NCBI GenBank assembly: GCA_045863295.1
Contig: BTWA01000030.1
Coordinates: forward strand, 1 to 64,000
Reading direction: 5' to 3'
DNA: 64,000 nt
DNA from: Candidatus Hydrogenedentota bacterium
GTDB lineage: Bacteria > Hydrogenedentota > Hydrogenedentia > Hydrogenedentales > SLHB01
Part shown: piece after piece, positions 34,038 to 50,457 of the stretch
Numbering within the stretch: the first letter of the stretch is position 1
How the letters are laid out: each line of letters begins with the position of its first letter
The notes under the pieces: model-generated
What the model saw: the letters and a program-made list of their open reading frames with translations, nothing else
Databases searched by the model: none
What the model was told of the DNA's origin: nothing
Made by a program: the position numbers and the translations under genes

Positions 34038-35417
34038 TCAGGGTGTGTGTTTCAGTACACCTGTCCCGTAGGAACCCACCGTGAAGGTAACTTTGCCCCC
34101 GGCAGCCACGAATGCCTTTCCACTGTCTTTGTCGGTGTACGTTCCGTCGGGCACGCCGCTCAACGTGCAATGGAGTGGGTCCTGCCATTCGTTAACCACG
34201 ATGAGCCACAATCCGTCGGCGGCCTGTTTGGGCAGCACGCGCACGCCACGATCGACTGAGCCCCACGTTTCCGCGTAATTGATTTCAAGGGCGATTGCGG
34301 CTTCCGGCGCGGACAGCACGGGCTGCAGGTCCGCCAATTCACGCAACACTTTCAAAACGTCTGCCCACAGTTGGGAATCCTTTTCGATGAATGCCGTGCC
34401 CCAATACAGAATGCCCCGCGCCCCATTCACAATGGTGTCGTAGGCCATGTAACGGGTCTCGGCCAGCGTTGGGCGGCGCTCGCGCTTTTTCGTGGCTTCG
34501 TCAGCGTTCTTGTCGAGATCAGCCCAACCGAATCCCTGGAGTACCATGAACACCGGCTTGCCGGGCGCGCTCTCCTGCATACGACGCGTGTACGCGCCGA
34601 CACTGGTGCGGCTTCGATCGCCCAGATCCGAATGGCCAGTCCCCCAATCCGGCATGGGATAAATGTCGCACCCCACTGCATCAGCCGCCTGCGCAAACAT
34701 GGCCAGTTGCGGTATGGAATTGCGGGGGGCGTGATTCATCCAGATTGGGTGTTTGGGGTCCAACTGCTTGAGCGCGGCGTAGCCCGCCTTCATGCCTTCA
34801 GCCATGACCACCATTCGATCGGCCGCGGTGTTGATTACATGTGCAGGCTGAGTCTCTGGCAGGCCGAGGGTCTTACTGAGCTCATCGGCCTTGGCTTCTC
34901 CCTCGACATACAATCCTTCCCGCATGGTGCGTTGCGCGTCGTCAAACTGGGCCTGCATGGCCGTCTTCTGGGCCTCATCGGTAATCGCGGCGATGGCTTC
35001 CCGCTGTTGCTTGGCCTGGTAGTTGAACCGCCACTCCTGCGCGGCGTACCAGACATTCCACAGGGCTTCGTCAGGCACTTCCCAAACCATCATTGCGGGA
35101 TGAGCCGCAAACTGGTCCGCCTTGGCCTTCAAGGCCGCCTCGCGGGCTTCCCGGTCAACGCTAAGGTCGAGGTCATACCCGGTATTCACCCAGCCTTTCA
35201 TGCCGAGTGCCTGCAGCGCATCAAGTTCTTCCGTGGAATGCACGTACATCAAGTTCACGCCAGCATCGGCGGCTTGCTTTAAAGCCGCTTTTTCCTTTGG
35301 ATACTCATACAGGCCAAGCACAAACGTCCGCTGGCCATCAACCACCAACATGCGATCTTCGGCGACTTGCACGTCCGCGGCGATGCCTGCCGCAAGCAGA
35401 AAAAGAATTGTTCCCAT
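34038..35417 (-). CDS. Secreted glycoside-hydrolase-like TIM-barrel protein
   Basis: Signal peptide, WEVPDEA, GCDIYP, FMVLQGF, GARGILYW; family not assignable. Confidence 0.6.
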   Translation of the reverse strand: MGTILFLLAAGIAADVQVAEDRMLVVDGQRTFVLGLYEYPKEKAALKQAADAGVNLMYVHSTEELDALQALGMKGWVNTGYDLDLSVDREAREAALKAKADQFAAHPAMMVWEVPDEALWNVWYAAQEWRFNYQAKQQREAIAAITDEAQKTAMQAQFDDAQRTMREGLYVEGEAKADELSKTLGLPETQPAHVINTAADRMVVMAEGMKAGYAALKQLDPKHPIWMNHAPRNSIPQLAMFAQAADAVGCDIYPMPDWGTGHSDLGDRSRTSVGAYTRRMQESAPGKPVFMVLQGFGWADLDKNADEATKKRERRPTLAETRYMAYDTIVNGARGILYWGTAFIEKDSQLWADVLKVLRELADLQPVLSAPEAAIALEINYAETWGSVDRGVRVLPKQAADGLWLIVVNEWQDPLHCTLSGVPDGTYTDKDSGKAFVAAGGKVTFTVGSYGTGVLKHTP

Positions 35418-35437
35418 GGCTCCCCCCTCAATGCTGT

Positions 35438-36340
35438 CTATTGCGTTACGGCGGCCTGCGCCGGATGCTTCTTTAGAAACGCCAGAATGGCTTCTGCAAA
35501 CGCGGGATCCGCAATGGTCGAGATGTGGTCCCCGCCTTCGATATAGATCGATTCATGCCGGCCCATGACACCGTTCATCCGATCCACCCCGGCACGTAAC
35601 GGATCGTCAGCCCCCACGATGGAGAGCAGCGGCACGGAGTTCGCGCGCAATTCCGCCTCGGCTACCACGAGTCCGTCCAAGGCACGCATCACGTGCGCAA
35701 GCGCTTCGGTGTCGTTCGTGAGACTCAATGTGAAGTTGATTTGGCGAAGCACCCACCCCTCGGGGGCTTTGCCCGGCGGCGATATCGCCTCGAAAAGCGG
35801 CCCGAAATTGCCCGTGTAATCCAGCGCATTCGCAATGTCGTACCGTTCGGCCTCGCCACTTTCCGGGTCTTCCCATCCGGCGCCACCGGCTACCGCGGAG
35901 ATGACGCGATCCGGATGGAGGGTGACCAGTTTGAGCGTAATGAATGCGCCCATGGAATAGCCGACCACATGTGCCTTGGGAATTCCCAGGTGATCCATCA
36001 GGCGAATCACGTCCTCGCAAAAGGGAAGGCCGTATGCGGATTCCTCGTGAGGCTTCTCGCTCAATCCGTGGCCGCGATTGTCGATGGCGATGACTTTGTA
36101 TTCCTTCGCCAACTTTTGCAGCACGCCCGGCTTGCGCCAATTCAGGTCGGCGTTGGCGGCAAACCCGTGAATCAGGATGAGTGGTTCGCCTTCGCCTTCC
36201 ACGGTGAAGTGAATGCGTATGCCGTCCGAGTCGAAAAACTCGCCGGCAACCCGATCGGTGATGCTGTGATAGAGGTACGCCAGGCCGGCCAGGAAAGCAC
36301 AAGCGACGAGAACGACAACTATGCCGATCTTGCGTTTCAC
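35438..36340 (-). CDS. Membrane-anchored alpha/beta hydrolase
   Basis: LIHGF, DNRGHGLS, GYSMG nucleophile elbow, GADD, GDH; SD AAGGAGG before GTG. Confidence 0.9.
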   Translation of the reverse strand: MKRKIGIVVVLVACAFLAGLAYLYHSITDRVAGEFFDSDGIRIHFTVEGEGEPLILIHGFAANADLNWRKPGVLQKLAKEYKVIAIDNRGHGLSEKPHEESAYGLPFCEDVIRLMDHLGIPKAHVVGYSMGAFITLKLVTLHPDRVISAVAGGAGWEDPESGEAERYDIANALDYTGNFGPLFEAISPPGKAPEGWVLRQINFTLSLTNDTEALAHVMRALDGLVVAEAELRANSVPLLSIVGADDPLRAGVDRMNGVMGRHESIYIEGGDHISTIADPAFAEAILAFLKKHPAQAAVTQ

Positions 36341-36364: not shown

Positions 36365-38293
36365 CTATAAGTCGTCGACGGAAATCCCGTAGACGTGAAC
36401 ATCCTGGTATTCATCATGCACGAACAGGGCTTCGCGAAGCGTGCCTTCGCGTTTGAACCCCAGCCCCTCAAGGAACGATTGCAGTCCCTTTTCCGGCGCC
36501 GATGCGGGAATGGTGAGCCTGCGCACGGCCTGCTGCTTGGCGGCTTCATTGAGCAGTGTCCGGAAACCGCGGCGTACGTCTTCCGCGAGATAGTCCTGGT
36601 CGTCCCGCATGTAAATCCAACCCTGGGCGGCGCCGTGAAACCGTTCCGGCCGCATCTTAATCAGGCCGAAGGGTTTGCCATCGCGTTTGACCAGGATCAT
36701 TTCCTTGTCCATGCCATGGGGATGGAGCGCATCCATTTCACGGTCGTAGCGGGTGGTGATCATGATGCCGCGCTCGGTATAGAGGAAATAAGCCGCACTG
36801 TTCCAGTTCTCCCACTCCATCAGCATGTCCGCGTCGGCTTCTTCAATGGGCCTCATGCCCACCGACATGCGGAACGCGGCACGCACAAGCGTGAATAGCG
36901 AGGGCTTCTCGGTCCGCGTAAACAAGTGGTACATGCGCGTGAAATTCACGCCCTCGGCGGACAACAAATTGAAAGCGGACACCGCCGATTCCGCCCACGC
37001 CCGCTGTGCGTTGCACCAGGTCTCGTGCGGCAAACGGAAGGAACCGCTCAACGCCTGGTGCACGGCCGCCGTACCGCCTCCGCAGACGTGGCGCGCCCAG
37101 CACCGGCGGCAAACACCGGTAGTGACCGATCCGATTTCATCGAACCTCGAACGTGCCTCTTCGTCCAATCTGCCTTCGGCGAGTGATCCCACCTTGAACG
37201 CTTCCTGGCCCAAAAAGCGCCATGAAGGATACAACGCGCCATCGGCATCCACGGCCAGTTCATTGGTGCCGCTGGGATCGTTTCGTTTCAACGGCACGCC
37301 GTCGTAAATCCGGTAAAAGAACCCTGCTATGGGATCGACCCGGAAATAGTGATGTTTCAACAGGCGGTTCGCGTAATATACCGCGGATTCGCTGAGCGCC
37401 TTGCGCATGGCTTCCGGATCCAGCGACGGATCCGCGGCATAGGATCCGTCGAGATCCAATTCAATGTGCGTGAAACCAGCCTTGTCCAATGTCTCGACGA
37501 CGCCCGCGAAGTTCGGATGTCCCGGTTGAAGCACGATTCTACCGGTCACGCCTTCGCCGCCGGGCTGCACCGCTTTTGCCAGTTTCGCAAGAGTCCACGG
37601 TCCGGGTTGCGCGAACGATTCGAATGCATCCAGTTGCGATTCGGTCTGTTTTACTTCCAGCACAATCGAGATCGTATGTCCTTCCAACGCGTCACCGGAT
37701 TTGGCTAACGAGAGATTGAGTACTCGAATGGAAACCGTCGCGGTTTTTCCGGCGAGGCCCGCGGCTCTGATGGCCTGACGGGACAGGCTAATGATCAAAT
37801 CCGGGCTCTGCAACTGGCCTTCGGCAATCCATTCTAGTTGCAGCAGTTTTTGATCGGCCGCCCGGCCCAGCAAAAGATCTATTGCATCTCGGCCCAGCGT
37901 CCTCGCTTGAAATGGGGCTTCGGATGTCTTGGCGCCGAACCAACCTTTCTTCTTCGCGGGCGGGTCTTCCACCGTTTCCACGCCGGGAAGGCGAACCGAA
38001 AGCTTCTTCAGGCCCTTTTCGAGTTCGAATTCCTTCTGGAGATCCTCTTTCTTGGCCGGCGGAAGGATGGCACGTGTGGACCGGAGCCACTCGAGTTCGC
38101 CGATGACCTCTTCCAATTCAGTTGTATCGTGTTTTCCGGCAAGTTCTCGCACAATTCGGTTAAGCGGCGTGTGCGGATAATACTCCAGCACATCCCAGGA
38201 GATGTCGTCGCATTCGAAGCAAAAACAGGTTTCGGGATCGATGGCAAACCGGCGGCCGCCCTGGACAAAACGATGTATGAGCGCTTGCGTCAT
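36365..38293 (-). CDS. RRE + degenerate radical-SAM/SPASM + RimJ/RimL GNAT fusion
   Basis: N-terminus IHRF...FAIDPET...DDISWDVLEYY...ELEEVIGEL resembles the SCIFF-maturase RRE; LAVDADGALYPS and CRRCWARHVCGGGT...WC form a SPASM remnant; C-terminal GFKREGTLREALF...DVHVYG is GNAT-like; no CxxxCxxC. Confidence 0.85.
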   Translation of the reverse strand: MTQALIHRFVQGGRRFAIDPETCFCFECDDISWDVLEYYPHTPLNRIVRELAGKHDTTELEEVIGELEWLRSTRAILPPAKKEDLQKEFELEKGLKKLSVRLPGVETVEDPPAKKKGWFGAKTSEAPFQARTLGRDAIDLLLGRAADQKLLQLEWIAEGQLQSPDLIISLSRQAIRAAGLAGKTATVSIRVLNLSLAKSGDALEGHTISIVLEVKQTESQLDAFESFAQPGPWTLAKLAKAVQPGGEGVTGRIVLQPGHPNFAGVVETLDKAGFTHIELDLDGSYAADPSLDPEAMRKALSESAVYYANRLLKHHYFRVDPIAGFFYRIYDGVPLKRNDPSGTNELAVDADGALYPSWRFLGQEAFKVGSLAEGRLDEEARSRFDEIGSVTTGVCRRCWARHVCGGGTAAVHQALSGSFRLPHETWCNAQRAWAESAVSAFNLLSAEGVNFTRMYHLFTRTEKPSLFTLVRAAFRMSVGMRPIEEADADMLMEWENWNSAAYFLYTERGIMITTRYDREMDALHPHGMDKEMILVKRDGKPFGLIKMRPERFHGAAQGWIYMRDDQDYLAEDVRRGFRTLLNEAAKQQAVRRLTIPASAPEKGLQSFLEGLGFKREGTLREALFVHDEYQDVHVYGISVDDL

Positions 38294-39093
38294 CAGTAGG
38301 CCCCCAGCGTGCCTTTGCTGCGGCTGTGGTTCTCCATCAGCTTAAACAAGGTCAAGCCGATGGCAGTCCAGATGCCGCAGTTAATCATCAGAAAATAAAA
38401 CGAAGGATGCGTGAAAATCGCGGTTCCCTCTCCTTCCATGAGCACCAGCTTCAGACAAATGGCCGCGTCGGTAATCGGTGCGACGTGCGCAAGGGCCTGC
38501 AACACAATCGGCCAATTGTACATGTCTTCCGTGATGGTCAGGGCGAGCCCAATAAGAATAAGTCGCAATATGACGGCGATTTCCCCCGTCTGCTTGAAGA
38601 CCAGCACCAAACCTCCGCTCATGAATCCGAAACCGATCAGATTCAAATAGGTCAGCACAAGGAGTAGAACCGTCAAGGCGGGGCTCGCATGGATTTGGCT
38701 GTCAAAGGTGGCGGCTACCATGGCGATCATGATGGACCAGGTAACAATGCTCATGAAGGCGGCGACGCATGACCGTGCGAGAAAATTGGTGATGAGTCCA
38801 TGCGGGCTCATATACATCTGTTCCAGTTCCCCTGAACGCGCCATACCCTGCAATCCGGATGTGAACAGTCCGATAATGCCGAAGGCAAACATGCCGATGA
38901 CAAGTCCCAGCGCCTTGTCCGTGATGAACTGGGAATACTGATTCGGATCGACCGTGCCGCTCGACAACGCCATGATGATGCCCACAAGCATGCCGTATCC
39001 CATGATCATGCCCACCATGGTCTTGAACCAATACCGGCGCATGATGATGAACCCGCGGACCAACTCCGCTTTCATGACCAAAAAGAAACCCAT
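38293..39093 (-). CDS. ABC-2 type exporter permease
   Basis: Six hydrophobic segments, GELEQMYMSP; TGATG coupling to the next gene; start 39093 or 39105. Confidence 0.85.
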   Translation of the reverse strand: MGFFLVMKAELVRGFIIMRRYWFKTMVGMIMGYGMLVGIIMALSSGTVDPNQYSQFITDKALGLVIGMFAFGIIGLFTSGLQGMARSGELEQMYMSPHGLITNFLARSCVAAFMSIVTWSIMIAMVAATFDSQIHASPALTVLLLVLTYLNLIGFGFMSGGLVLVFKQTGEIAVILRLILIGLALTITEDMYNWPIVLQALAHVAPITDAAICLKLVLMEGEGTAIFTHPSFYFLMINCGIWTAIGLTLFKLMENHSRSKGTLGAY

Positions 39094-39142
39094 GTCTGCT
39101 CCCATTATTGAACGCGCGGGCGGGGCAGCCGCCGCTATCTTG

Positions 39143-40165
39143 TCAAGCCGGTCCGTCCGAGGTAAGCCGCAGGAACACATTTTCCAGCGTCTGTTGCCGC
39201 TCGCGAATGGAGCGTAATTCGACGCGATCGCCGCGTAGCGACTCAATCAGCCGGTACAAGGCCTCCGATCGATCGGAGGGATCGGACGGAACTTGCACGC
39301 TCAAGATCGGTCCATTTTCACTGGGCAGCGATTCAGCACCATGAATGCCCGGAATCGCGCGAAGGCTATCCAAGTCCGGCATGCGGTCAAGATGCAGTTC
39401 GTACGCCTGATCGGAAAAGACGTCCAGCAACTCCTCCGTCGGCTTGCACGCGATCAATTTGCCATTTTCTATGATCCCGATGCGATCGCAGAGTTCCTGA
39501 GCGACGCCCATGTCGTGCGTGGTGACCACTACACTCTTTCCTTGGGTCCGGGTCATCTCGATGATCTTGTCTTTGATGTTCCGGCTGCTTTGCACGTCCA
39601 AACCTGTGGTCGGCTCGTCCAGGAGGAGTACTTCGGGATCCGTGATCAGCGCAATGCATATGGCCAGCTTCTGCTTCTGGCCCCGGGACAGCTTCCGCAC
39701 CTCCGTGTTCATCTTGTCTTTCAGTCCGATGAACTCGAGCAGTTGTTCGGACCGCGCTCGCAATACGCGACCGCGCACGTCCCGCAAATTACCGAAATAG
39801 GCGAGGTTCTCCAGTGGCGTCAACGGCCAGATGCACGTTCGCGTGCCTTCCAAGACAACGCCCAGCTTACGGAGAACCTTGAGCCGGTTCGACTCCACGT
39901 AGAGGCCGCCGACATACACCTCGCCGCTGCATGGCTTCACCAAGCCCGATATCATCTTCACGGTCGTCGTTTTGCCCGCGCCGTTGCGGCCCAGCAAACC
40001 GAAAATTTCGCCCCTGCGCACGCCGAATGACACGTCGTTTACCGCATGGACCGTTTTCCTGCGGTACCATTTGCGCACACCGGAATCCTCGTCACGGGTG
40101 AGCACGTGGCGGGTATGGAACACTTTGTTGATACCACGCAATTCGACGGTGAATTCGGCGCTCAT
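39143..40165 (-). CDS. ABC exporter ATP-binding protein
   Basis: GRNGAGKTT, LSRGQKQK, LLLDEPT, TTHD, TLENVF tail. Confidence 0.95.
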   Translation of the reverse strand: MSAEFTVELRGINKVFHTRHVLTRDEDSGVRKWYRRKTVHAVNDVSFGVRRGEIFGLLGRNGAGKTTTVKMISGLVKPCSGEVYVGGLYVESNRLKVLRKLGVVLEGTRTCIWPLTPLENLAYFGNLRDVRGRVLRARSEQLLEFIGLKDKMNTEVRKLSRGQKQKLAICIALITDPEVLLLDEPTTGLDVQSSRNIKDKIIEMTRTQGKSVVVTTHDMGVAQELCDRIGIIENGKLIACKPTEELLDVFSDQAYELHLDRMPDLDSLRAIPGIHGAESLPSENGPILSVQVPSDPSDRSEALYRLIESLRGDRVELRSIRERQQTLENVFLRLTSDGPA

Positions 40166-40926
40166 TTTGCTTGCTGCCTCGAGGGCATGTACACCTTGTC
40201 CATTTCCCGGGCGGCCAGTTCTGGATCGCCCAACTCGTCGACTTTCATCAGATACTCCAAATAGGCGATCTCGATGTCGCGCATGGCGTGAATGACCATG
40301 ACAAGGACAAAGCTGTTGGTCACATGATACAAAACGCCCAGCAAGAGCGAGAATCCCACGAATTCCAGTGACACCATGAAGCTGTTCTCGAAAAAGTGCT
40401 TGTGCACGACCACAAAAAGTGCCGCGACCACTACAATACCCGTGAACGCCGCCGCGTTTGCGGACATGAACTGTTCGAGAAACACAACCGAAAACTTCTG
40501 CGCGGAAACGCGCCAGATGAGTTCTTCGGCCACGGCCACCCCAAGGAAACGCAACAACACGATTGGACTGTCAACGGTAAAATTCCACAAATCGCCGAAG
40601 TCGAAGAAGTGGCTCCAGGCATCCTTGATCGAATTGTGTGTGATCAAAAGCGACAGGCCGAACACCATGTGTCCAGCCAACAATCCCAATCCGATATAGA
40701 GTGGCGAGACCAGTTGCCGCGAGAATACGTCGAGACACAGGGCAAAGTAGACGGCCAGCCAAAAAATGGGCGCTTGTATGAAAACATGCACTCTACGTAT
40801 GCCACCGGTGGGTTGTTCCCCTTCCACGTACCGGTTACTGATCAGGGAAAAGACAACGTGCCCTCCGAGCAAGGCGAAAAAAGCGCCAACAGTCCAGCCC
40901 GGAATGGAGACCGCCTCGACGATCAT
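40162..40926 (-). CDS. CPBP (type II CAAX/Abi) intramembrane metalloprotease
   Basis: AEELIWR (EExxxR), FVVVH (FxxxH), HAMRD (HxxxD); ATGA overlaps at both ends. Confidence 0.9.
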   Translation of the reverse strand: MIVEAVSIPGWTVGAFFALLGGHVVFSLISNRYVEGEQPTGGIRRVHVFIQAPIFWLAVYFALCLDVFSRQLVSPLYIGLGLLAGHMVFGLSLLITHNSIKDAWSHFFDFGDLWNFTVDSPIVLLRFLGVAVAEELIWRVSAQKFSVVFLEQFMSANAAAFTGIVVVAALFVVVHKHFFENSFMVSLEFVGFSLLLGVLYHVTNSFVLVMVIHAMRDIEIAYLEYLMKVDELGDPELAAREMDKVYMPSRQQAK

Positions 40927-41555
40927 TCCGCCGCCTCCGGCTGCACCCTTCGGTCTTCGATGTCGGCAATCATCGTCTTCAGATCGATCCCTTTCAGCTT
41001 GCGATGGAAACTCTCACGCAAAACTTCAAATTCGGATCGAAGCAGACCATATCCGTACATCTCGAACATTTGTCCATCCCGGGCCACGTGATCGGGTAAC
41101 ACCAATTCGCGTTTTGCCCCGGAGAGTTCGAAGTTTCGCCACGAACGGCTATTGAAGCCGTAAATGTAGATGTTGATGCGATGCATGTTCAGAATGTGGA
41201 AACAGTATTCAAGAACACGGTAAAACGAGATCGTTGCCAGCATACCGTTCCGCTTGGACTCGATAATGTACGAGTCGATATTGCAAGAACGGTTGCGCCA
41301 ACTGATATTGACTACACTGAAGAGTCCAAACGGCCCGTACTTGTTGGAATCCGCCACGAAATAGATCGTAGGGGGCATGGAATGCGGCGCGGAGCGGCCA
41401 AGCATGCCGACGATTTGTTCGCGCACTTGGCGCGGCGAGCGCGCGGGATCCCCGTACAGAAAGCGTTGAAATGCGGGGTCCTGCATCCACGAGACCACCG
41501 TTTCCAAATCGTCGCGGTCCGCGCGACGTATAAACACACTAGACTTAAGCGCCAT
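40923..41555 (-). CDS. RimJ/RimL-type GNAT
   Basis: IRRADRDDLE, ISWRNR, YCFHILNMHRI, FNSRS, GAKRE, MYGYGLLRSEF. Confidence 0.85.
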   Translation of the reverse strand: MALKSSVFIRRADRDDLETVVSWMQDPAFQRFLYGDPARSPRQVREQIVGMLGRSAPHSMPPTIYFVADSNKYGPFGLFSVVNISWRNRSCNIDSYIIESKRNGMLATISFYRVLEYCFHILNMHRINIYIYGFNSRSWRNFELSGAKRELVLPDHVARDGQMFEMYGYGLLRSEFEVLRESFHRKLKGIDLKTMIADIEDRRVQPEAAE

Positions 41556-41557
41556 GA

Positions 41558-42103
41558 TCAGGCCTCCGCCGCGGCGGGTGCGGCAAGGCGATCGTATTCC
41601 GGCCGCAACATGCCGAATCCGAGCAAATCCGCGGCCTTGCCGTTTTGCAGCAGATGTCCCCGGTACGTCACTTCTCGCTTAGCACCCATTCTAGCGAGCG
41701 CGGAAAGAGCGGTTGTGTCGGAGGCGGCCACACGCGTGGACACTCGATGAAGATTGAGTTCGTCGAAGCAATACCGGAGTAGACCCAGCCAACCATCAAA
41801 CACAATATCTTCCGTGCGATGCGCGGGAATCACGTAGAGACTGGAGGCGCATTGACGATTGCGCCACTGCATTTCGTAGATGGCGGCGAGGCCCACCGGC
41901 TGGTCTTTGTCGTCAGTCAGCATAAAAAATCCGATGCCGGCATTCTGCGAATTCAGGGCACCACCCAGCAGTGCTATCGCCTGCGCACCGTGCTGACGCC
42001 AGGACCGCCGGCTGTCACCAAAGACAAACTCGCGGAACACGGGGTCCTCGGCCCATTCGAGGACATAGTCGAGGTCGGCCCGCTCAAGACGTCGCAAGCG
42101 CAC
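41558..42103 (-). CDS. RimJ/RimL-type GNAT
   Basis: LRRLERADL, QWRNR, YCFDELNLHRV, GAKRE, FGMLRPEY. Confidence 0.85.
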   Translation of the reverse strand: MRLRRLERADLDYVLEWAEDPVFREFVFGDSRRSWRQHGAQAIALLGGALNSQNAGIGFFMLTDDKDQPVGLAAIYEMQWRNRQCASSLYVIPAHRTEDIVFDGWLGLLRYCFDELNLHRVSTRVAASDTTALSALARMGAKREVTYRGHLLQNGKAADLLGFGMLRPEYDRLAAPAAAEA

Positions 42104-42656
42104 TGTATCGTTCCTTGTAGGCTTCCAAATGTTGGCAGCGGGATCGGGGCAGCGAATGCGATTCGAGATCGTAGTAGCGGCCGTGAGTATAGATCATGTC
42201 CCGTTGAATACCATCGCACACGAAACCGTGACGCACGAGAAACGCGCGGTACAATTCCTCTGTGGTCAGGCAACTGGTTTGAATCTTGTTGAGTTTCTTC
42301 TCGACAAACGTGCCGTATGCGATGAAACCAAATACTTCGTCGGCGAGGGGCTGGCCGTAATCGGACTCATCGGCCATGGCGAGCATCATTTCCGCGAACG
42401 CGGATTCCATCTTGGCGCTACGCATCACGAAACAACCCCGAATATCCCCTTGCAGATTCTCAACGACAAAGAAGACGCCGGAAAGAAAGTCTTTCCGGCC
42501 AAGCATTTCGCGCAATTCGTCCAATGTGGGGATGTAGATTTCCCGCGAAGGACCGATCAGGAATGAACGAGGCGATGACATATCGTACAACTGCCACAGG
42601 GCGTACGCGTCATCGGGTTCGCTCGAACGGATTATGCCGTGTTCCAATGCAATCAT
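42084..42656 (-). CDS. RimJ/RimL-type GNAT
   Basis: IRSSEPDD, FVEKKLNKI, GFVCDGIQRD, GRYYDL. Confidence 0.8.
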   Translation of the reverse strand: MIALEHGIIRSSEPDDAYALWQLYDMSSPRSFLIGPSREIYIPTLDELREMLGRKDFLSGVFFVVENLQGDIRGCFVMRSAKMESAFAEMMLAMADESDYGQPLADEVFGFIAYGTFVEKKLNKIQTSCLTTEELYRAFLVRHGFVCDGIQRDMIYTHGRYYDLESHSLPRSRCQHLEAYKERYSALATS

Positions 42657-42832
42657 GATGCGTCAAATTCTATCGGTAATGGGTTGCCACAGACGGAAAA
42701 GCCGATTGAATCGCTGCCATGGGTCTGTTCCAACAATTATGCCCGAATCGAGTTGGCCAACACTACCCCGTGGGTGGCGTGCGCCTTCCAATCGGATGCA
42801 ATGTCGCTTTTCCTCCGGCACTCGCCGCATTC

Positions 42833-42862
42833 AAAAAAAAGCGGGGTTGAAGCCAACCCCGC
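42833..42862 (-). terminator. Strong intrinsic terminator between the peptide genes and the maturation genes
   Basis: Minus strand GCGGGGTTG-GCTT-CAACCCCGC-TTTTTTTT (perfect 9-bp stem, T8). Confidence 0.92.
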
Positions 42863-42894
42863 GAAACGTCCCGTATGCAAACAGCGCCGTGCGG

Positions 42895-43107
42895 CTAAAA
42901 GAACAAACGCTCTTCGTCGTCTCCACCCGTGTCACCGCCGCCGTCTCCCCCGTCATCCGGGGGATCGACGATCCCGCCGCCACCAATGATAAAGTTCTTC
43001 TTGCCGAAAACAACGTCGTAGTAGCCATTCAGGACGGCATTTACAAAATCGATGGCGGCCGTGGCTTCCAGGATCTTCGTTTTCGTTAGTTTGCGCACGT
43101 GCTTCAT
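42895..43107 (-). CDS. Putative precursor peptide C (70 aa)
   Basis: MKHVRKLTKTKILEA-TAAIDFVNAVLNGYYDVVFGKKN...Gly/Asp tail; SD GGAG; colinear with the neighbouring peptide. Confidence 0.8.
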   Translation of the reverse strand: MKHVRKLTKTKILEATAAIDFVNAVLNGYYDVVFGKKNFIIGGGGIVDPPDDGGDGGGDTGGDDEERLFF

Positions 43108-43156
43108 GGACGATCTCCAGACCGACCCGGCCGCGCCGGATCCGTCAGCACCCAGC

Positions 43157-43294
43157 CTATCCCTTCAGGCCACCGATGGAGTTCTTCGTGGAAAACAGGA
43201 AGTTCAACCATGCGTTCCAGAACGTATTCAAAAAGTCATCATACGAAGCGGCCTGACGTATCCGCGCTGCGGAAATGTTTCGCACATGTCGCAT
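43157..43294 (-). CDS. Putative precursor peptide B (45 aa, not in ORF track)
   Basis: Manual translation MRHVRNISAARIRQAASYDDFLNTFWNAWLNFLFSTKNSIGGLKG*; SD GGAGGA 6 nt before ATG; 16/45 ungapped identities to peptide C. Confidence 0.85.
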   Translation of the reverse strand: MRHVRNISAARIRQAASYDDFLNTFWNAWLNFLFSTKNSIGGLKG

Positions 43295-43392
43295 GAACAC
43301 TCCTCCATGTAGTTCGTGAAATGGCGCTGACTACGGCAGCGTCATCACGGGTATCAGCGGTAATTCATAACCCCAACACGGCCGTATCGGCG

Positions 43393-43614
43393 TCAGGTAT
43401 TCTCTTCCGGATTCTTCTCTTCGCTATACGCCGTGAGCGCGGCCAAGAACCCCTGCAAGCCAGTCACCGAGGCAGTGAAGATGGCGCTAAACGCAGTGAC
43501 GAATACGGTTACAACGTCAAAACCCAGCGTCAATATGGAGATTAGTACCTCCAGATTGGTCTGATCGGCCTCGGCACGTAACGGTTGCTTGGAAATCATG
43601 GTCAGGTGTTTCAA
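43393..43614 (-). CDS. Putative precursor peptide A (73 aa)
   Basis: TTG start after SD GGGAGA; MKHLTMISKQPLRAEA leader, long hydrophobic Ser/Thr-rich core, EEKN near the C-terminus. Confidence 0.78.
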   Translation of the reverse strand: MKHLTMISKQPLRAEADQTNLEVLISILTLGFDVVTVFVTAFSAIFTASVTGLQGFLAALTAYSEEKNPEENT

Positions 43615-43823
43615 GGTGATTCTCCCGAAATACTGTCTTCTACCCTGTTGTAGAGCCCACCAGAATGTGAACCCCTCAACAGCTCAAAAGTTCCGCCACA
43701 ACGCTGCACCAAGGACATCGCCCTGCGTGTGATCCACGTCCAGCAACGTTACAGCGGATTCTGCGGATGGTGCGTCAATAATTTACACCCACGCAGAGAA
43801 CCGAGACCAACACGCGTTCGACG

Positions 43824-43852
43824 AGTCTAGCACCAAACCATCCCGTTATCAA
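43824..43852 (-). promoter_or_regulatory. Candidate sigma70 promoter of the peptide genes
   Basis: TTGATA-17 nt-TAGACT with extended -10 TG. Confidence 0.55.
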
Positions 43853-44025
43853 TGACATCAAATGCTTAACCGGGAATGGGTTAGCCCCCCGAAGAACTCC
43901 CGTACTATAGGGTCCCGCCTTATCCTACCGCAACGGACGTAAGCCGTTACGGTCTCGAAACGGGTACTACTGACGAGAAACACTTTACATCAACCCGGCA
44001 ACGCGGTGCACACAAAGGAAGTCCC

Positions 44026-45531
44026 TTAACGGACACCGGCAACTTCCACACTGTCGTACCCAAAGGATTGGGCGCTCGGAAGGTCCGAATGGCCCATCAG
44101 CCGAATATCAATGGCACGTGCGGCCTCACGGCCTTCGTGAATGGCCCAGACCACCAGCGACTGTCCGCGGCGCGCGTCGCCTGCCGCAAAGACATTGGGC
44201 TTGCTTGTGCTGTACTGGCCGTATTCGGCTTTCACATTTCCACGTGGATCTAATTCCAGCCCAAGTTGTTTGGGCAAAACATGTTCGGGATGAACAAAGC
44301 CCATGGCCAAGAGCACCAGTTCACACTCAATCTCGAACTCGCTGCCAGCCACTTCCTTCATTTGCATCCGGCCCGAATCGTCTTTCACCCATTCGACACG
44401 GACCGCCTGGATAGCGCGCAATTTCCCGTTGCCGTCTCCCAGGAACTCCTTAGTAAGCACGCTGAAATCGCGGTCGCCCCCTTCTTCGTGGCTCGAAGAC
44501 GTACGATAAATAACGGGCCACAGGGGCCAAGGGGTTGACGGATTCTCGCCCTCGGGCGGACGAGGCAACAACTCCAACGACCACACGTGCTTCGCCCCCT
44601 GCCGCAGACTGGTGCCGAGGCAGTCGGAACCCGTGTCGCCGCCACCGAGAATTACCACGGTTTTGCCATTGGCCAAAATCGCGTTTTCTACGACTTCCTT
44701 TCCCGAAACCCTACGGTTTTGCTGGGTCAGAAAATCCATGGCGAAGTGTACGCCGTCCAGTTCACGTCCGGGGATCGGGAGATCCCGGGGTTGGGTCGAC
44801 CCTGTGGTCAACAGAATGGCGTCAAATTCTTTCTCCAACTCAGCGGCGGTGACGTCTTTGCCCACTTCCACGCCGCACCGGAAAATGACGCCTTCAGCGG
44901 CCATCTGCTTCAGCCGCCGGCGCACGACGTCCTTGTTCAGCTTGAAATCCGGAATACCGTACATCAGCAAGCCACCAGCCTCATCCGCGCGCTCGAAAAG
45001 GGTGACTGTATGGCCAGCCCGGTTCAGTTGTTGCGCGGCGGCCAACCCAGCCGGACCGGACCCAATTACCGCGACTTTCTTTCCGGTCCGGACTTCCGGC
45101 AACTCGGGATTGATCCAGCCTTCCGCGAAGCCGCGGTCGGCGATGGAACGTTCGTTCAGTTTGATGGTGACGGGCGGATCCGTGATTCCCAGCACGCACG
45201 ATGCCTCGCACGGCGCTGGGCACACTCGACCAGTAAACTCCGGGAAGTTATTGGTGGAAAGCAACGTATCCAAGGCGCGTTTCCAATCCAAATCCTTCAC
45301 ACCGTCGTTGAAATCGGGAATGATGTTCCCCAGGGGGCAGCCGGACATGCAAAACGGGATGCCGCAATTCATGCAGCGGTACCCCTGCTCCTTCATTTTC
45401 GAATCATCGAAATCCTGGAGGAACTCGTCCCAATGCTTTGTGCGCTCTTCTACAGGCCGGTACGACGGCGTTTCCCGCTTGTATACCATGAACCCTTTTT
45501 CTTTCGAGGGTCCATTGTTATTTGACGGCAT
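44026..45531 (-). CDS. gltD: Glutamate synthase small subunit
   Basis: RCMNCGIPFC, NNFPEFTGRVCPAPCE, IGSGPAG, GQSLVVWAI. Confidence 0.96.
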   Translation of the reverse strand: MPSNNNGPSKEKGFMVYKRETPSYRPVEERTKHWDEFLQDFDDSKMKEQGYRCMNCGIPFCMSGCPLGNIIPDFNDGVKDLDWKRALDTLLSTNNFPEFTGRVCPAPCEASCVLGITDPPVTIKLNERSIADRGFAEGWINPELPEVRTGKKVAVIGSGPAGLAAAQQLNRAGHTVTLFERADEAGGLLMYGIPDFKLNKDVVRRRLKQMAAEGVIFRCGVEVGKDVTAAELEKEFDAILLTTGSTQPRDLPIPGRELDGVHFAMDFLTQQNRRVSGKEVVENAILANGKTVVILGGGDTGSDCLGTSLRQGAKHVWSLELLPRPPEGENPSTPWPLWPVIYRTSSSHEEGGDRDFSVLTKEFLGDGNGKLRAIQAVRVEWVKDDSGRMQMKEVAGSEFEIECELVLLAMGFVHPEHVLPKQLGLELDPRGNVKAEYGQYSTSKPNVFAAGDARRGQSLVVWAIHEGREAARAIDIRLMGHSDLPSAQSFGYDSVEVAGVR

Positions 45532-48500
45532 GCTGAACCTCCTGAGCGACGGCCTTGCCATTGTCTCCACCGGCTTGCCGTTCCATTTCACGCAACACCC
45601 GCGCGTAATCGCGCGGCATCACCCGGACAAAGTGCTGAGACTCAGAAGTCCAGTTGTCGAGGATCCGCTTCGCCACGGTGCTGCCGGTGTACTGAACATG
45701 CCGATCCAGCATGTACTTCAAATCGTTCAGACTCTTTTCGTTCATCGGCTTCAAGTCAACAGACTCTTGATTGCACAGAATGGGAAAGGAACCGTTTGGG
45801 TCGTACACGAACGCAATGCCACCGCTCATGCCTGCCGCGAAGTTCCGCCCGGTCGGCCCAAGAATGGCCGCACGGCCGCCAGTCATGTACTCGCACCCAT
45901 GATCGCCCACGCCTTCGACAACCGCCCAGGCGCCGCTGTTGCGCACGCAGAAGCGCTCGCCGCCAATGCCGCGAAAATACGCTTCTCCGCCCGTGGCGCC
46001 GTATAGGGCCACATTGCCTACCACGATGTTCTGCTCGGGTGTCATGGGGCACTCGGCCGGCGGTGTCACAATAATCTTGCCGCCGGAAAGTCCCTTGCCG
46101 CAGTAGTCGTTGGCTTCGCCGGTCACGTTCAAAGTCACGCCTTTGATCGAAAACGCGCCAAAGCTTTGGCCCGCCTGACCTGTGCAATCGATCCACACGG
46201 TGTCTTCAGGCAAAGTGCCGGTTTCGAGACCGACCTTGTGAACGCGCGTCAATTCACTGGAAAGCATCGTTCCGACGGTACGGTTGATGTTCTTTATTTC
46301 CGTCGAAAACCGTACCTTTTCAACTTGGTCGAAAGATGCAGCTGGTTTGAGCGCCGCGCTTGCACGCACAAGAAGGTCGTTGTCCAACGCCTTCTCCAGT
46401 CCGTGATCCTGGGTCTGGCTGTGATAAAGCGTCTCCCCTTTCCACGGCGTCTCCACATGAAGCAGGCGGGTAAGGTCGAGCTTCTTTGCCTTCCAGTGAT
46501 CCGGCAGGGGGTCGTATTCGAGCCGGTCGGTGCGGCCGATCATTTCATTAACGGTGCGGAAACCGAGTTCCGCCATGATGGCCCGCACTTCCTCGGCAAT
46601 GAAGAAACACAAATTCACAACGTACTCGGGCTTGCCCGCGAATTTCTTGCGCAGTTCCGCATCTTGTGTCGCAATGCCGACCGGGCAGGTGTTCAAATGA
46701 CACTTGCGCATCATGATACACCCCGTCGCAATGAGCGGCAATGTCGCCATGCCCACTTCGTCGGCGCCCAGCAGGAACGCAATGGCCACATCGCGGCCGG
46801 TCTTAATCTGGCCGTCCGTTTGTACGCGAATTCGGCTTCGCAAATTGTTGGACACCAGAACCTGGTGGGTCTCGGAGAGGCCCAACTCCCACGGCAGACC
46901 CGCATGCTTGATCGAACTCAGGGGCGACGCGCCGGTTCCACCATTGTCGCCGCTGACAAGTACCAAATCGGACTTGCCCTTGGCCACGCCCGCGGCGACC
47001 GTACCCACACCCACTTCCGACACGAGCTTCACCGAGATGTTCGCGTACTTGTTCGCGTTCTTCAGATCATGAATGAGTTGCGCCAAGTCTTCGATCGAAT
47101 AGATGTCGTGATGCGGCGGAGGCGAAATCAATTCCACGCCGGGCGTGGAATAGCGAATGCGCGCAATCTCCGGGAACACTTTGTGCCCCGGCAATTCGCC
47201 GCCTTCACCGGGCTTCGCACCCTGCGCCATTTTGATTTGGAGTTCGTCCGCATTGACAAGGTATTCGTTGGTCACGCCAAAGCGGCCGGAGGCCACTTGC
47301 TTAATCGCGCTGCGACGCAGATCGCCATTGCCATCCGCCACGAATCGTTTTGGATCTTCGCCGCCTTCGCCGGTGTTGCTTCGGCCGCCGATACGGTTCA
47401 TCGCAATCGCCAGCGTTTCGTGCGCTTCCTTGCTGATCGAACCAAACGACATGGCCCCCGTGCAGAACCGCTTCACGATTTCTTTCGCGGATTCCACTTC
47501 CTCGATAGGAACCGGGGTGCCTTTCTTGAACTTCAACAACGAACGCAGCGCGGCCAACGACCGGTTGCGATCATTGATGAGGGCGCTGAACTCCCGGAAT
47601 TTCTCCTGGCTATTCGCGCGCACGGCATGTTGCACCCGCGACACGGTGTCGGGGTTGTACATGTGAAATTCGCCGCGCCGGCGCCAGCGGTATACACCGC
47701 CCGGATCCAACTCGCGGGGCCGTGCATGCGCCTTCGGATACGCAATGGAATGACGCATGAGCGTCTCGCGGCACACGTCCTCCATCTCGATTCCGCCAAT
47801 GCGCGAAGCTGTACCCGCAAAGCATCGGTCAATCAGGATTGGGCCGAGGCCCAGGGCTTCGAAGATTTGCGCGCTTCGGTAGCTGTGCTGCGTCGAGATG
47901 CCGATCTTTGACATCGTCTTCAGCATGCCCGCTTCAACCGCGTGAATGAAATTCGCGACGGCTTGCCCCGGTTCCTTTTCCACCAGGATTTCCCGTTGGA
48001 GTTGGTCCTCGATCGTGGCGAAGGCGAGGTATGGATTCACCGCGCCCGCGCCGTATCCCGTCAAGAGGCAGAAGTGCATAACTTCGCGGGGCTCGCCGGA
48101 TTCCACCACGATACCGCAATGGCTGCGAAGCCCTTTGCGCACCAGGTGATGGTGCACACCGCCCGTCGCGAGCAAGCTCGGAATCGCGGCATTCTTTTCA
48201 CCCACACCGCGATCGGACAGCAGAAGGAGCGTGTACCCCGCTTGGGTAGCGGCTTCCGCCTCATTGCAAATGCGATCGAGGTGTCTCTCAAGCGCGCCAA
48301 AGCCCTCTTCCGCAGGAAACAGCGTCGAAATGACTTTCGTCTTCAGACCTGGCTTGTCCAAGTGCTTGATATAGTCGAGTTGCTCGTTCGTGATGATGGG
48401 CGACTTCAAATGAAGCTGTTGGCAGTCTTCCGGAGTCGCATCGAGCAGATTCTTCTCGCGGCCGATATCGGTTTCCAGCGACATGACGATTTCTTCGCGG

Positions 48501-50128: not shown

Positions 50129-50457
50129 CAAGAGAATTAGGCAGTTAGAGTTGGCCTGCTCGTCCTGTGTAACCTGGACTTGGTACATGTTGCCCAGCAC
50201 AGCGAACCAGGACCCTGCCGTCAGGCAGCGCATCGCTACCGAAAATATATACCCGAAACGTTCGTGTTTCCGGCGAAACCCTTGCGAGATCCGGACCGGC
50301 GAGCAGGAGCTACAACTCCTTGCTAATACTCATCTTAAGTCATGTCGCACGAACCAATTCACGCCGTAGCCACGCGTCGCAGCGGCATGACCTCCCTTCG
50401 CGATCAGCTCACACGCATCGCGAAAAAAGCGGGCTAAACAGAAGAATCCGTCGGAAG

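Follow-up and report, generated by a model that had tools for sequence, protein, structure and literature searches.

The minus-strand locus at positions 36365–43852 of a 64,000-nt stretch of contig BTWA01000030.1 from a Candidatus Hydrogenedentota bacterium (GCA_045863295.1; the whole stretch is termed the window) is a real operon that is kept by nearly all members of the Hydrogenedentota, and its arrangement is beyond chance. On sequence grounds and with moderate confidence, we regard this operon as a leader-guided system for peptide modification and export, which would be derived from the SCIFF/ScfB ranthipeptide system and would now be a lineage-wide trait of the Hydrogenedentota. The locus consists of a promoter-like site, three small open reading frames (ORFs), a terminator, genes for three GNAT proteins (GCN5-related N-acetyltransferases), a CPBP protease, a DrrA-like ATP-binding cassette (ABC) ATPase and an ABC-2-like permease, and a gene for a 642-aa fusion protein. 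The fusion protein joins an RRE (RiPP recognition element; RiPPs are ribosomally synthesized peptides that undergo post-translational modification), a degenerate radical-SAM (S-adenosylmethionine) barrel, a SPASM domain and a further GNAT domain. This gene set and layout had been proposed in a first-pass annotation of the DNA, and every part was found in place, with the gene junctions confirmed.

Ancestry of the fusion protein

The fusion gene (36365–38293) encodes, from the N-terminus, the RRE, which is a leader-binding winged-helix domain (residues 1–90; 38024–38293), the degenerate radical-SAM barrel without cluster or SAM motif (residues 95–330; 37304–38011), the SPASM domain (residues 333–460; 36914–37297) and the C-terminal GNAT domain (residues 476–642 and the stop codon; 36365–36868). 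Its sole sequence match in the Protein Data Bank (PDB) is CteB, a SCIFF/ranthipeptide maturase (5wgg; E 8.4e-22), and the alignment covers residues 3–168 (RRE and the start of the barrel) and 340–435 (SPASM). Residues 3–105 align with the peptide-binding N-terminal domain of CteB, the RRE at residues 1–90 corresponding to CteB residues 4–101. A structural model of the fusion built on 32 relatives has a mean predicted local distance difference test score (pLDDT) of 85.5 and matches 5wgg_A in Foldseek (E 3.1e-18; template modelling score, TM, 0.71 by target; 483 columns), a fold match that, with the CteB alignment, marks out the barrel. In the ESM Atlas, clusters of SCIFF maturases provide the structures nearest the fusion (TM 0.82 by row). 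Likewise, the best NCBIfam matches are ScfB-related, Nif11 and SCIFF maturases. The SPASM domain model TIGR04085 is passed (39.5 bits; cut-off, 27), and full-length maturase models stay far below their cut-offs, at a sixth or less (TIGR03974, 71.2 vs 425 bits; NF040492, 76.3 vs 855 bits; TIGR04064, 72.2 vs 518.7 bits). In the source databases, the fusion is annotated as 'SPASM domain-containing protein' or 'hypothetical'.

The residues required of a radical-SAM enzyme are missing from this scaffold. The CxxxCxxC motif of CteB aligns to a Cys-free stretch of the fusion, the GGE SAM motif reads AEG, and CxxxCxxC is found anywhere in none of the 32 aligned family members. SPASM domains carry a seven-cysteine motif and two auxiliary clusters, as quoted in the available text of PMC6231123. 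In the fusion of the window, four of the seven are present and the first, second and sixth cysteines are absent; all seven are kept in 3 of the 32 members, which are deep-branching. The four that remain (C395, C398, C404 and C427) are invariant in 32/32 members and are presumably the ligands of the second auxiliary cluster, as in the anSME structure. If so, the scaffold would be radical-dead but may still hold one cluster. The description of this protein as a 'dead' radical-SAM scaffold in the first-pass annotation accordingly stands for the radical site, whereas the SPASM domain, with its four invariant cysteines, is not clearly dead.

By these alignments, the fusion is a descendant of the SCIFF/ScfB lineage in which the radical-SAM cluster, the SAM motif and the first auxiliary site have been lost. 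The order of these losses is suggested by a fusion from another order of the phylum (L037; G061:C9, 7572-8360), which keeps all seven SPASM cysteines without CxxxCxxC; because of this combination, loss of the radical site would have preceded loss of the first auxiliary site.

Small peptides, modelled leader docking and distribution

Upstream of the enzyme genes, three small peptides are encoded. pepA (43393–43614; 73 aa; TTG start) consists of an MKH leader, a long hydrophobic helix, Lys-Asn-Pro and a short tail. pepB (43157–43294; 45 aa) has an ATG start with GGAGGAG six bases upstream, and consists of the leader and an aromatic amphipathic helix with Lys-Asn near the end. pepC (42895–43107; 70 aa) is a paralogue of pepB with a Gly/Asp-rich C-terminal extension. 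The first-pass annotation had listed three small peptides; all three are present with MKH leaders, and pepB and pepC are now reassigned as paralogues of one family, termed type I, whose profile matches them in their own genome with E 1.8e-18 and 3.5e-17, respectively.

Small ORFs upstream of GNAT1 in 19 loci (that of the window and those of 18 relatives) provide 59 peptides with a shared start, MKH[IVL][RK]x[IV][ST]. The leader is 14–16 residues long, is SCIFF-like and is conserved at His3 (55/59), Ser/Thr8 (58/59) and Ala14 (45/59). The type I peptide is encoded by the ORF closest to GNAT1 and has 38–45 aa; in the alignment, the leader is followed by an aromatic amphipathic helix, K-K-N-E and 2–4 further residues, with an invariant aromatic-rich segment and no conserved Cys. 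Further upstream, each locus encodes 0–4 other MKH peptides of several types with hydrophobic helices, including pepA, so that the number (1–5 per locus) and type of peptides vary between genomes. Orthologues of pepA occur in the two nearest relatives, L013 and L014 (47% identity; E 4.7e-11), where they have GTG starts and keep the N-terminus. The peptides are conserved as protein, with E values down to 8.5e-10 in tblastn and down to 1e-25 in profile searches. A Lys residue is located after position 26 in 59 of 61 peptides, the next residue being K, E, N or D in 48 of them; the position of this post-helix Lys clusters at 33 (13 peptides) and at 40–41 (19 peptides).

The leader resembles that of SCIFF precursors: those encoded directly upstream of two Christensenella maturases begin with M-T-H-I-K-V-I-R and M-A-H-I-K-V-I-R. 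Curated families do not include the new peptides. The three window peptides have no match in Pfam, and none in NCBIfam at E<=1, and 19 type I family members compared with NCBIfam at E<=10 gave only chance-level matches and none to the SCIFF precursor model TIGR03973. In the own genome and 14 control genomes, nothing exceeded the TIGR03973 cut-off, the best own-genome match (14.6 vs 50 bits) lying outside the locus. The type I profile gave only chance-level matches to PDB chains, with the co-crystallised CteA fragment unmatched.

The strict leader pattern occurs in 14 small ORFs of the own genome, compared with 4.0 ± 2.1 for 30 permuted patterns (maximum, 9), and three of the 14 are those of this locus. 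The 11 other MKH ORFs are at C10:94684-94836, C25:5918-6034, C27:48166-48285, C27:60943-61137, C27:61625-61723, C74:925-1077, C74:1280-1447 and four more sites. Several are clustered, and some resemble helix-plus-Lys peptides. No maturase-like large ORF was seen beside them by eye, no family scan having been made there. These ORFs may be orphan substrates of the present system.

Docking of the leader was modelled using the whole fusion and pepB, both as alignments, in three runs and three controls. The complex scores were 0.76, 0.65 and 0.58 (median, 0.65), and all three controls scored 0.00. Of 157 solved complexes, 116 attain the mark used for this score, compared with 2 of 215 mismatched pairs. 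At least 40% of contacts are shared between the runs. Confident contacts connect peptide residues 1–12 with fusion residues 16, 23–32 and 59–75, which form the strand-helix groove of the RRE, and with residues 329–332 and 438–452. CteA is described as binding CteB by extending the RRE sheet in the available text of two studies (PMC6231123, PMC8326336), and the complex model is to be read as a likeness to CteB–CteA, not as demonstrated binding. Taken together, the CteB alignment, the fold match and the modelled contact with peptide residues 1–12 identify the fusion's N-terminal domain as an RRE, in agreement with the first-pass annotation.

In the modelled complex, the RRE strand in contact with the peptide includes a C-F-C-F-E-C motif (residues 23–28; 38210–38227), which is found in 27 of 32 family members and is absent from CteB and the deepest relatives. 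C23, C25 and C28 are each at least 90% conserved. This motif could be a metal site or redox switch beside His3 of the peptide.

Several distribution analyses point to a phylum-wide system. An exhaustive search of 1.84 billion representatives retrieved 33 full-length relatives of the fusion (596–678 aa), after which ordinary maturases of 415–530 aa with 21–28% identity follow. Where the source name includes an organism, 11 of 12 are Candidatus Hydrogenedentes/Hydrogenedentota and 1 is Bathyarchaeia. The protein labelled Candidatus Bathyarchaeia archaeon (P0079; 52% identical; 304-kb contig) is most likely encoded by a mis-binned Hydrogenedentota contig rather than the result of a transfer to archaea. 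The fusion is present in 60 of 61 close-relative genomes, and at E<=1e-30 in 123 of 135 Hydrogenedentota species genomes, including 83 of the 86 high-quality ones; the misses are concentrated in family f3 (9 of 14 missing). Identity to the fusion of the window is 47–64% in the same family, mostly 37–52% in other families of the order, 27–30% in the Hydrogenedens-like family f13 and 28% in the other order. Outside the phylum, a locus scan with three deep-branching fusions met no fusion; it retrieved three maturase loci of Christensenella, the G061 contig and a spurious match of 35 aa in Pleomorphomonas. A locus search with P0172, the closest canonical maturase, gave 67 pattern matches and no relative, and a homologue search with P0157 matched P0157 only.

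Peptide and fusion are kept or lost together. The type I profile matches 110 of the 135 genomes: both components are present in 109 genomes, the fusion only in 14, the peptide only in 1 and neither in 11. Among genomes without the fusion, GNAT3 was found in 0 of 4 tested and the peptide in 0 of 3 tested. Where fusion and type I peptide lie on one contig (71 genomes), the gap between them is 3772–4880 bp in all cases. The order GNAT1-GNAT3-CPBP-ATPase-permease-fusion is complete in 18 of 20 fetched relatives' loci, the incomplete ones being L024 (permease and fusion only) and L029 (without GNAT1 and peptides). The full order is also found in G061, which belongs to another order and has two Cys-free MKH peptides unlike type I. 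The co-occurrence that the first-pass annotation had proposed to look for across genomes is thus present, in that homologues of the fusion adjoin MKH-leader peptides in a conserved order. Two genomes of fair completeness carry the system in separate parts: in G040, the peptide and GNATs are on one contig and the permease and fusion on the other (C42, C43), and in G059 the type I peptide is apart from the enzymes (C40, C23), suggesting that the parts can work from separate loci.

PQQ (pyrroloquinoline quinone) and mycofactocin pathways use RRE and SPASM proteins and are kept vertically. A cofactor-type pathway of this kind, in which the peptide is the precursor of an intracellular redox-active or signalling small molecule, would explain the housekeeping spread, and the invariant aromatic-rich segment of type I and the four retained SPASM cysteines would fit it. 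The operon, however, has no radical-SAM site and, according to the family scans, no oxidoreductase, it includes an exporter and a membrane protease, and several unrelated peptide types share the leader; a cofactor pathway is therefore considered very improbable.

Acyltransferases, protease, pump and the proposed pathway

All three free GNATs pass Pfam gathering scores: GNAT1 (42084–42656; 190 aa) with PF13420 (29.6 vs 24.3 bits), and GNAT2 (41558–42103; 181 aa) and GNAT3 (40923–41555; 210 aa) with PF13302 (44.9 and 46.9 bits, respectively, vs 25.4). GNAT1 has orthologues in 19 loci and is a distant paralogue of the fused GNAT (BLASTP vs fusion residues 476–642: E 2e-5; 23% identity). For the fused domain, relationships are indicated by NF007539 RimL (E 2e-4) and by Foldseek matches of the last 165 residues to SpeG chains (E 5e-9) and RimJ (3igr_A; E 1e-8). 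GNAT2, a lineage-specific duplicate of GNAT3, is confined to the window and its two nearest relatives (3 of 21 loci) and is without the Y-x-F-N-x-x-S-W-R block found invariantly in GNAT3. Four GNAT domains, as counted in the first-pass annotation, are indeed encoded in the window, but only GNAT1, GNAT3 and the fused domain are conserved.

GNAT3, a SpeG/RimJ-like amine N-acyltransferase by homology, is the most constrained part of the system, with 72 positions at least 90% conserved among 20 orthologues. Its profile matches Staphylococcus aureus SpeG (8fv0; E 1.6e-18) and Bacillus subtilis YdaF, and its model (pLDDT 81) matches SpeG in Foldseek (8fv1_A; E 8e-16; TM 0.86 by target). The pyrophosphate of acyl-coenzyme A (CoA) is bound in GNATs by a loop of the form Q/R-x-x-G-x-G/A. 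Inactivity of GNAT3 through lack of this loop was considered and dropped, as the SpeG alignment shows that the first loop Arg is kept.

The relationship to SpeG raises the alternative of a GNAT substrate that is a non-peptide amine, for instance a polyamine or an envelope component, and of a pump that exports the product, with the peptides and the pseudo-enzyme as regulators or accessories. In line with this, SpeG polyamine acetyltransferases are nearest to GNAT3, by sequence and fold, and to the fused domain, and the conservation of the type I peptide is that of a protein subunit rather than of a variable core. Yet the leader motif is common to all peptide types and SCIFF precursors, the RRE keeps many invariant residues, and retention and loss of the peptide, GNAT3 and the fusion go together. 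In addition, an intrinsic-terminator-like element lies between peptides and enzymes at 42832–42862, with a hairpin at 42862-42841 (9 pairs, 7 of them G-C; loop of 4) followed by TTTTTTTT (eight T). A terminator between precursor and enzyme genes is typical of precursor-enzyme operons. Given these features, a non-peptide substrate seems unlikely.

The CPBP protein (40162–40926; 254 aa) is an intramembrane glutamic protease of the Rce1/Abi type that exceeds the gathering score of PF02517 (36 vs 22.4 bits). E134, E135, R139, F171, H175, H177, N181 and H213 are invariant in 20/20 orthologues, so that what we take to be the EExxxR, FxxxH and third-His motifs are present. A protein-sorting function has been weighed for this protease, which would act on membrane-anchored peptides like a MrtJ/myxosortase-type sorting protease. 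The protein has a weak match to NCBIfam MrtJ (E 0.087), and the peptides have one hydrophobic helix followed by Lys. But the MrtJ match, at 13.5 bits vs a cut-off of 75, is far under the threshold; the shared peptide motif is N-terminal and lies on the cytoplasmic RRE in the model; the C-terminal helix plus basic-tail signal was not seen; and the targets would be peptides of 38–75 aa, not large proteins. Sorting is accordingly regarded as highly improbable.

The ABC ATPase (39143–40165; 340 aa; DrrA/ABC-2 type; PF00005, 102 bits) conserves the Walker A, signature and Walker B motifs and the H-loop His in 21 sequences. Its best family is TIGR01188 (237 bits, under the cut-off of 312). The membrane permease (38293–39105; ~270 aa) is conserved beside the ATPase in 20/20 loci and is ABC-2-like, as read from its position and, by eye, from its membrane helices. 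Its longest ORF runs from TTG 39246; the start is most likely ATG 39105, because relatives align only from about residue 46–53. PADLOC assigned 0 defence families to 6 of the 7 proteins, with generic ATPase matches only for the ABC ATPase. Judged from conservation and retained motifs, GNAT3, the CPBP protease and the ATPase look competent.

Immunity to bacteriocins and lantibiotics is known to be conferred by CPBP/Abi proteins and ABC-2 pumps. The locus might be read as a bacteriocin locus with its immunity genes: unmodified, class II-like peptides would act as membrane-active toxins, with the producer protected by the CPBP/Abi protein and the ABC-2 pump, the GNATs would detoxify by acetylation, and the fusion would be no more than a leader chaperone. 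Such a locus would fit small helical peptides of hydrophobic or amphipathic character, with the variation in number and type noted above, and the lantibiotic protection ATPase family TIGR03740 is among the ATPase matches (E 5.6e-41). The system is, however, single-copy and near-universal (123 of 135 genomes), with identity that tracks taxonomic distance, and type I is strongly conserved, which is unlike bacteriocin turnover. Neither a C39 peptidase nor a double-glycine leader was seen in the family scans or on reading the peptides, and three conserved GNAT domains together with an RRE-GNAT fusion are hard to explain by immunity alone. A bacteriocin locus is therefore held to be quite unlikely.

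For the leader-guided modification system that we favour, the following pathway is proposed. Small peptides would be made with the N-terminal MKH[IVL][RK]x[IV][ST] leader, which would dock as a beta-strand on the RRE of the 642-aa pseudo-maturase. The fused GNAT, free GNAT1 and SpeG-like GNAT3 would then transfer an acyl group, most simply acetyl, to a peptide amine. A candidate acceptor is the Lys located just after the helix in nearly all peptides; this Lys would be the best candidate because the fused GNAT must act with the leader attached and because the Lys side chain resembles the polyamine substrates of SpeG. The CPBP protease would cut off the leader or the short tail, and the DrrA-type ABC pump would export the product. 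Homology, domain loss, conservation, co-occurrence and the modelled contact are the results on which this pathway is built; the action of GNATs on peptides, the acceptor, the acyl donor, the cleavage site and export are what we infer from them.

A number of observations weigh against this pathway. Peptide acylation is a predicted chemistry, and the substrates acetylated by the nearest GNATs of solved structure are polyamines (SpeG) or ribosomal proteins, not RiPPs. The fused GNAT stays under the PF13420 cut-off (residues 481–633; 22.0 vs 24.3 bits). In GNAT3, the invariant Arg102 aligns with the first position of the CoA loop of S. aureus SpeG and the loop glycines are not kept; in GNAT1, GNAT2 and the fused domain, no CoA loop was recognised by eye, and GNAT1 and the fused domain are acidic there. 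As these loops are odd or partial, some GNAT domains may be inactive or use another donor. In the complex model, pepB has a pLDDT of 44–46 (<50), so its own fold is uncertain, and the contact covers the leader only; the score may also be partly memory of CteB–CteA, because that complex is solved. The permease has no Pfam or NCBIfam family match. The 14 fusion-only genomes have no type I match; most of these assemblies are fragmented, 4 belong to f3, and G061 has other MKH peptides. One metatranscriptome run had 8% of the sampled words and a single 207-nt contig in GNAT1 (42213–42419), with nothing on the peptide genes; its contigs are of low depth and DNA carry-over is possible, so this run is silent on expression either way.

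From the near-universal, single-copy and vertically consistent distribution, a function in housekeeping or signalling seems more likely than antibiotic activity. For SCIFF peptides, the wide spread in Clostridia has likewise been taken as an argument against an antimicrobial role (PMC8326336, available text). A further-reaching possibility, which we put forward only tentatively and consider doubtful, is a phylum-defining 'housekeeping RiPP' that would constitute a new RiPP class. The former radical-SAM protein would serve as a docking platform for GNAT chemistry, possibly with one Fe-S cluster. The helical peptides would be free of Cys, N-acylated and perhaps lipidated at a ruler-positioned Lys; after trimming by the CAAX-type protease, they would be pumped out to act as signals or envelope components required by nearly every Hydrogenedentota cell.

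Flanking DNA and comparison with known systems

Most of the enzyme genes overlap or abut. Overlaps are 20 nt for GNAT1/GNAT2, 4 nt for GNAT3/CPBP, 4 nt for CPBP/ATPase and 1 nt for permease/fusion, and GNAT2 and GNAT3 are separated by a 2-nt gap. With the permease start at ATG 39105, ATPase/permease is the sole enzyme-gene junction without abutting or overlap. Upstream of the peptide genes, a sigma-70-like promoter candidate is located at 43824–43852 on the minus strand (TTGATA, 17-nt spacer, TAGACT; 9/12 matches; TG before the second hexamer). Because the scan found 1 site and 0.9 are expected in shuffles, this promoter-like site by itself is weak evidence, at chance level.

gltB and gltD, encoding the large and small subunits of glutamate synthase, lie directly upstream on the same strand (44026–50233). 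gltD adjoins the peptide genes in 10 of 20 relatives' loci, an adjacency that may reflect either a functional link or conserved synteny. Downstream, 34038–36340 of this strand encodes a 300-aa alpha/beta hydrolase (PF00561) and a protein of 459 aa that has no Pfam match; as they are found in 0 of 20 relatives' loci, both lie outside the conserved operon. The DNA of the window is detected mainly in sludge and bioreactor runs. DNA near-identical to 41500–44000 (57–75% of sampled words) occurs, beyond the probable source sample, in sludge and activated-sludge runs from several studies, suggesting that the organism is recurrent in sludge reactors, and six contigs of one run align to this region, each at least 99% alike.

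Compared with the SCIFF/ranthipeptide system (CteA–CteB, 5WGG; TIGR03973 and TIGR03974), the first 460 residues of the fusion are homologous to CteB in the same order of RRE, barrel and SPASM, and the leader M-x-H-I-K/R-x-I/V is as in the precursors beside Christensenella maturases. Both systems show lineage-wide rather than scattered spread, on the SCIFF side according to the available text of PMC8326336. Unlike SCIFF maturases, the fusion has no CxxxCxxC, no GGE and four of seven SPASM cysteines, and the peptides match no SCIFF model, type I having no conserved Cys. The present system has in addition the C-terminal GNAT, two or three free GNATs, the CPBP protease and the ABC pump.

GNAT-dependent acylation of RiPPs is known from selidamides and also from goadvionins, lipolanthines and microviridin N-acetylation, and in these systems, as in the present one, GNAT genes adjoin genes for small precursors. 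Selidamide GNATs attach fatty acyl groups to the side chains of Lys or Orn near core ends (PMC8784127, available text), a likeness to the Lys near the C-terminal end of the helix in 59 of 61 peptides here. Selidamide precursors have NHLP or Nif11 leaders, and the RRE is unmentioned in the available text of PMC8784127, whereas the present peptides have a SCIFF-like leader with no NHLP or Nif11 match. Here, moreover, a GNAT is fused to an RRE-bearing pseudo-maturase, and the GNATs are nearest to SpeG and RimJ/L. For the protease, a parallel is provided by MroQ, an Abi/M79-family protease (bioRxiv 10.1101/516914) that removes the AgrD leader (PMC9388083), both as given in the available text: a membrane protease of the same superfamily removes the leader of a small ribosomal peptide that is then released, a role predicted here for the CPBP protein. 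Unlike the CPBP protein, MroQ has neither GNATs nor an RRE protein encoded with it.

Loss of the radical site and fusion to a GNAT each have separate counterparts. The GG-Bacteroidales 'pseudo-rSAM' family (TIGR04150) has lost the cluster cysteines and kept a peptide-maturation neighbourhood, and is not known to have a GNAT fusion. It resembles the fusion as a radical-SAM/SPASM homologue without cluster cysteines, but is not among the 18 NCBIfam families matching the fusion at E<=1. Elp3-type proteins combine a radical-SAM-type barrel and a GNAT in one chain, with homology to the fusion seen at the level of the two superfamilies; Elp3 keeps its cluster, is not known to carry an RRE or SPASM domain and acts on tRNA. 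The third feature match in the ESM Atlas is a Radical_SAM + Acetyltransf_1 cluster (score 0.84), which is a lead only and presumably Elp3-like.

The first-pass annotation recognised no named class with this gene set, and none was found in the literature searched: as far as the available text goes, this literature, including two RRE genome-mining papers, describes no RRE/SPASM-GNAT fusion or such gene set, and supplements of the RRE and selidamide studies could list such clusters. To our knowledge, no case has been described of a maturase that switched chemistry while the leader-RRE pair was kept, and literature searches found none. If the proposed pathway is correct, a SCIFF-type leader-RRE pair has outlived the maturase chemistry and has been re-used to deliver peptides to another catalytic domain, and the products are likely a new class of ribosomal peptides. 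As far as we know, the Hydrogenedentota have few or no cultured members; the system would provide a handle on lineage-wide peptide-maturation systems, SCIFF in Clostridia and this one in Hydrogenedentota, with a compact operon and a conserved 38–45-aa peptide as a defined substrate, and the RRE-GNAT fusion could serve as a tool for leader-directed peptide acylation. Set against these known systems, the RiPP logic is a familiar one, and the combination of a SCIFF-derived, radical-dead docking protein with GNAT chemistry is a new variant of it.

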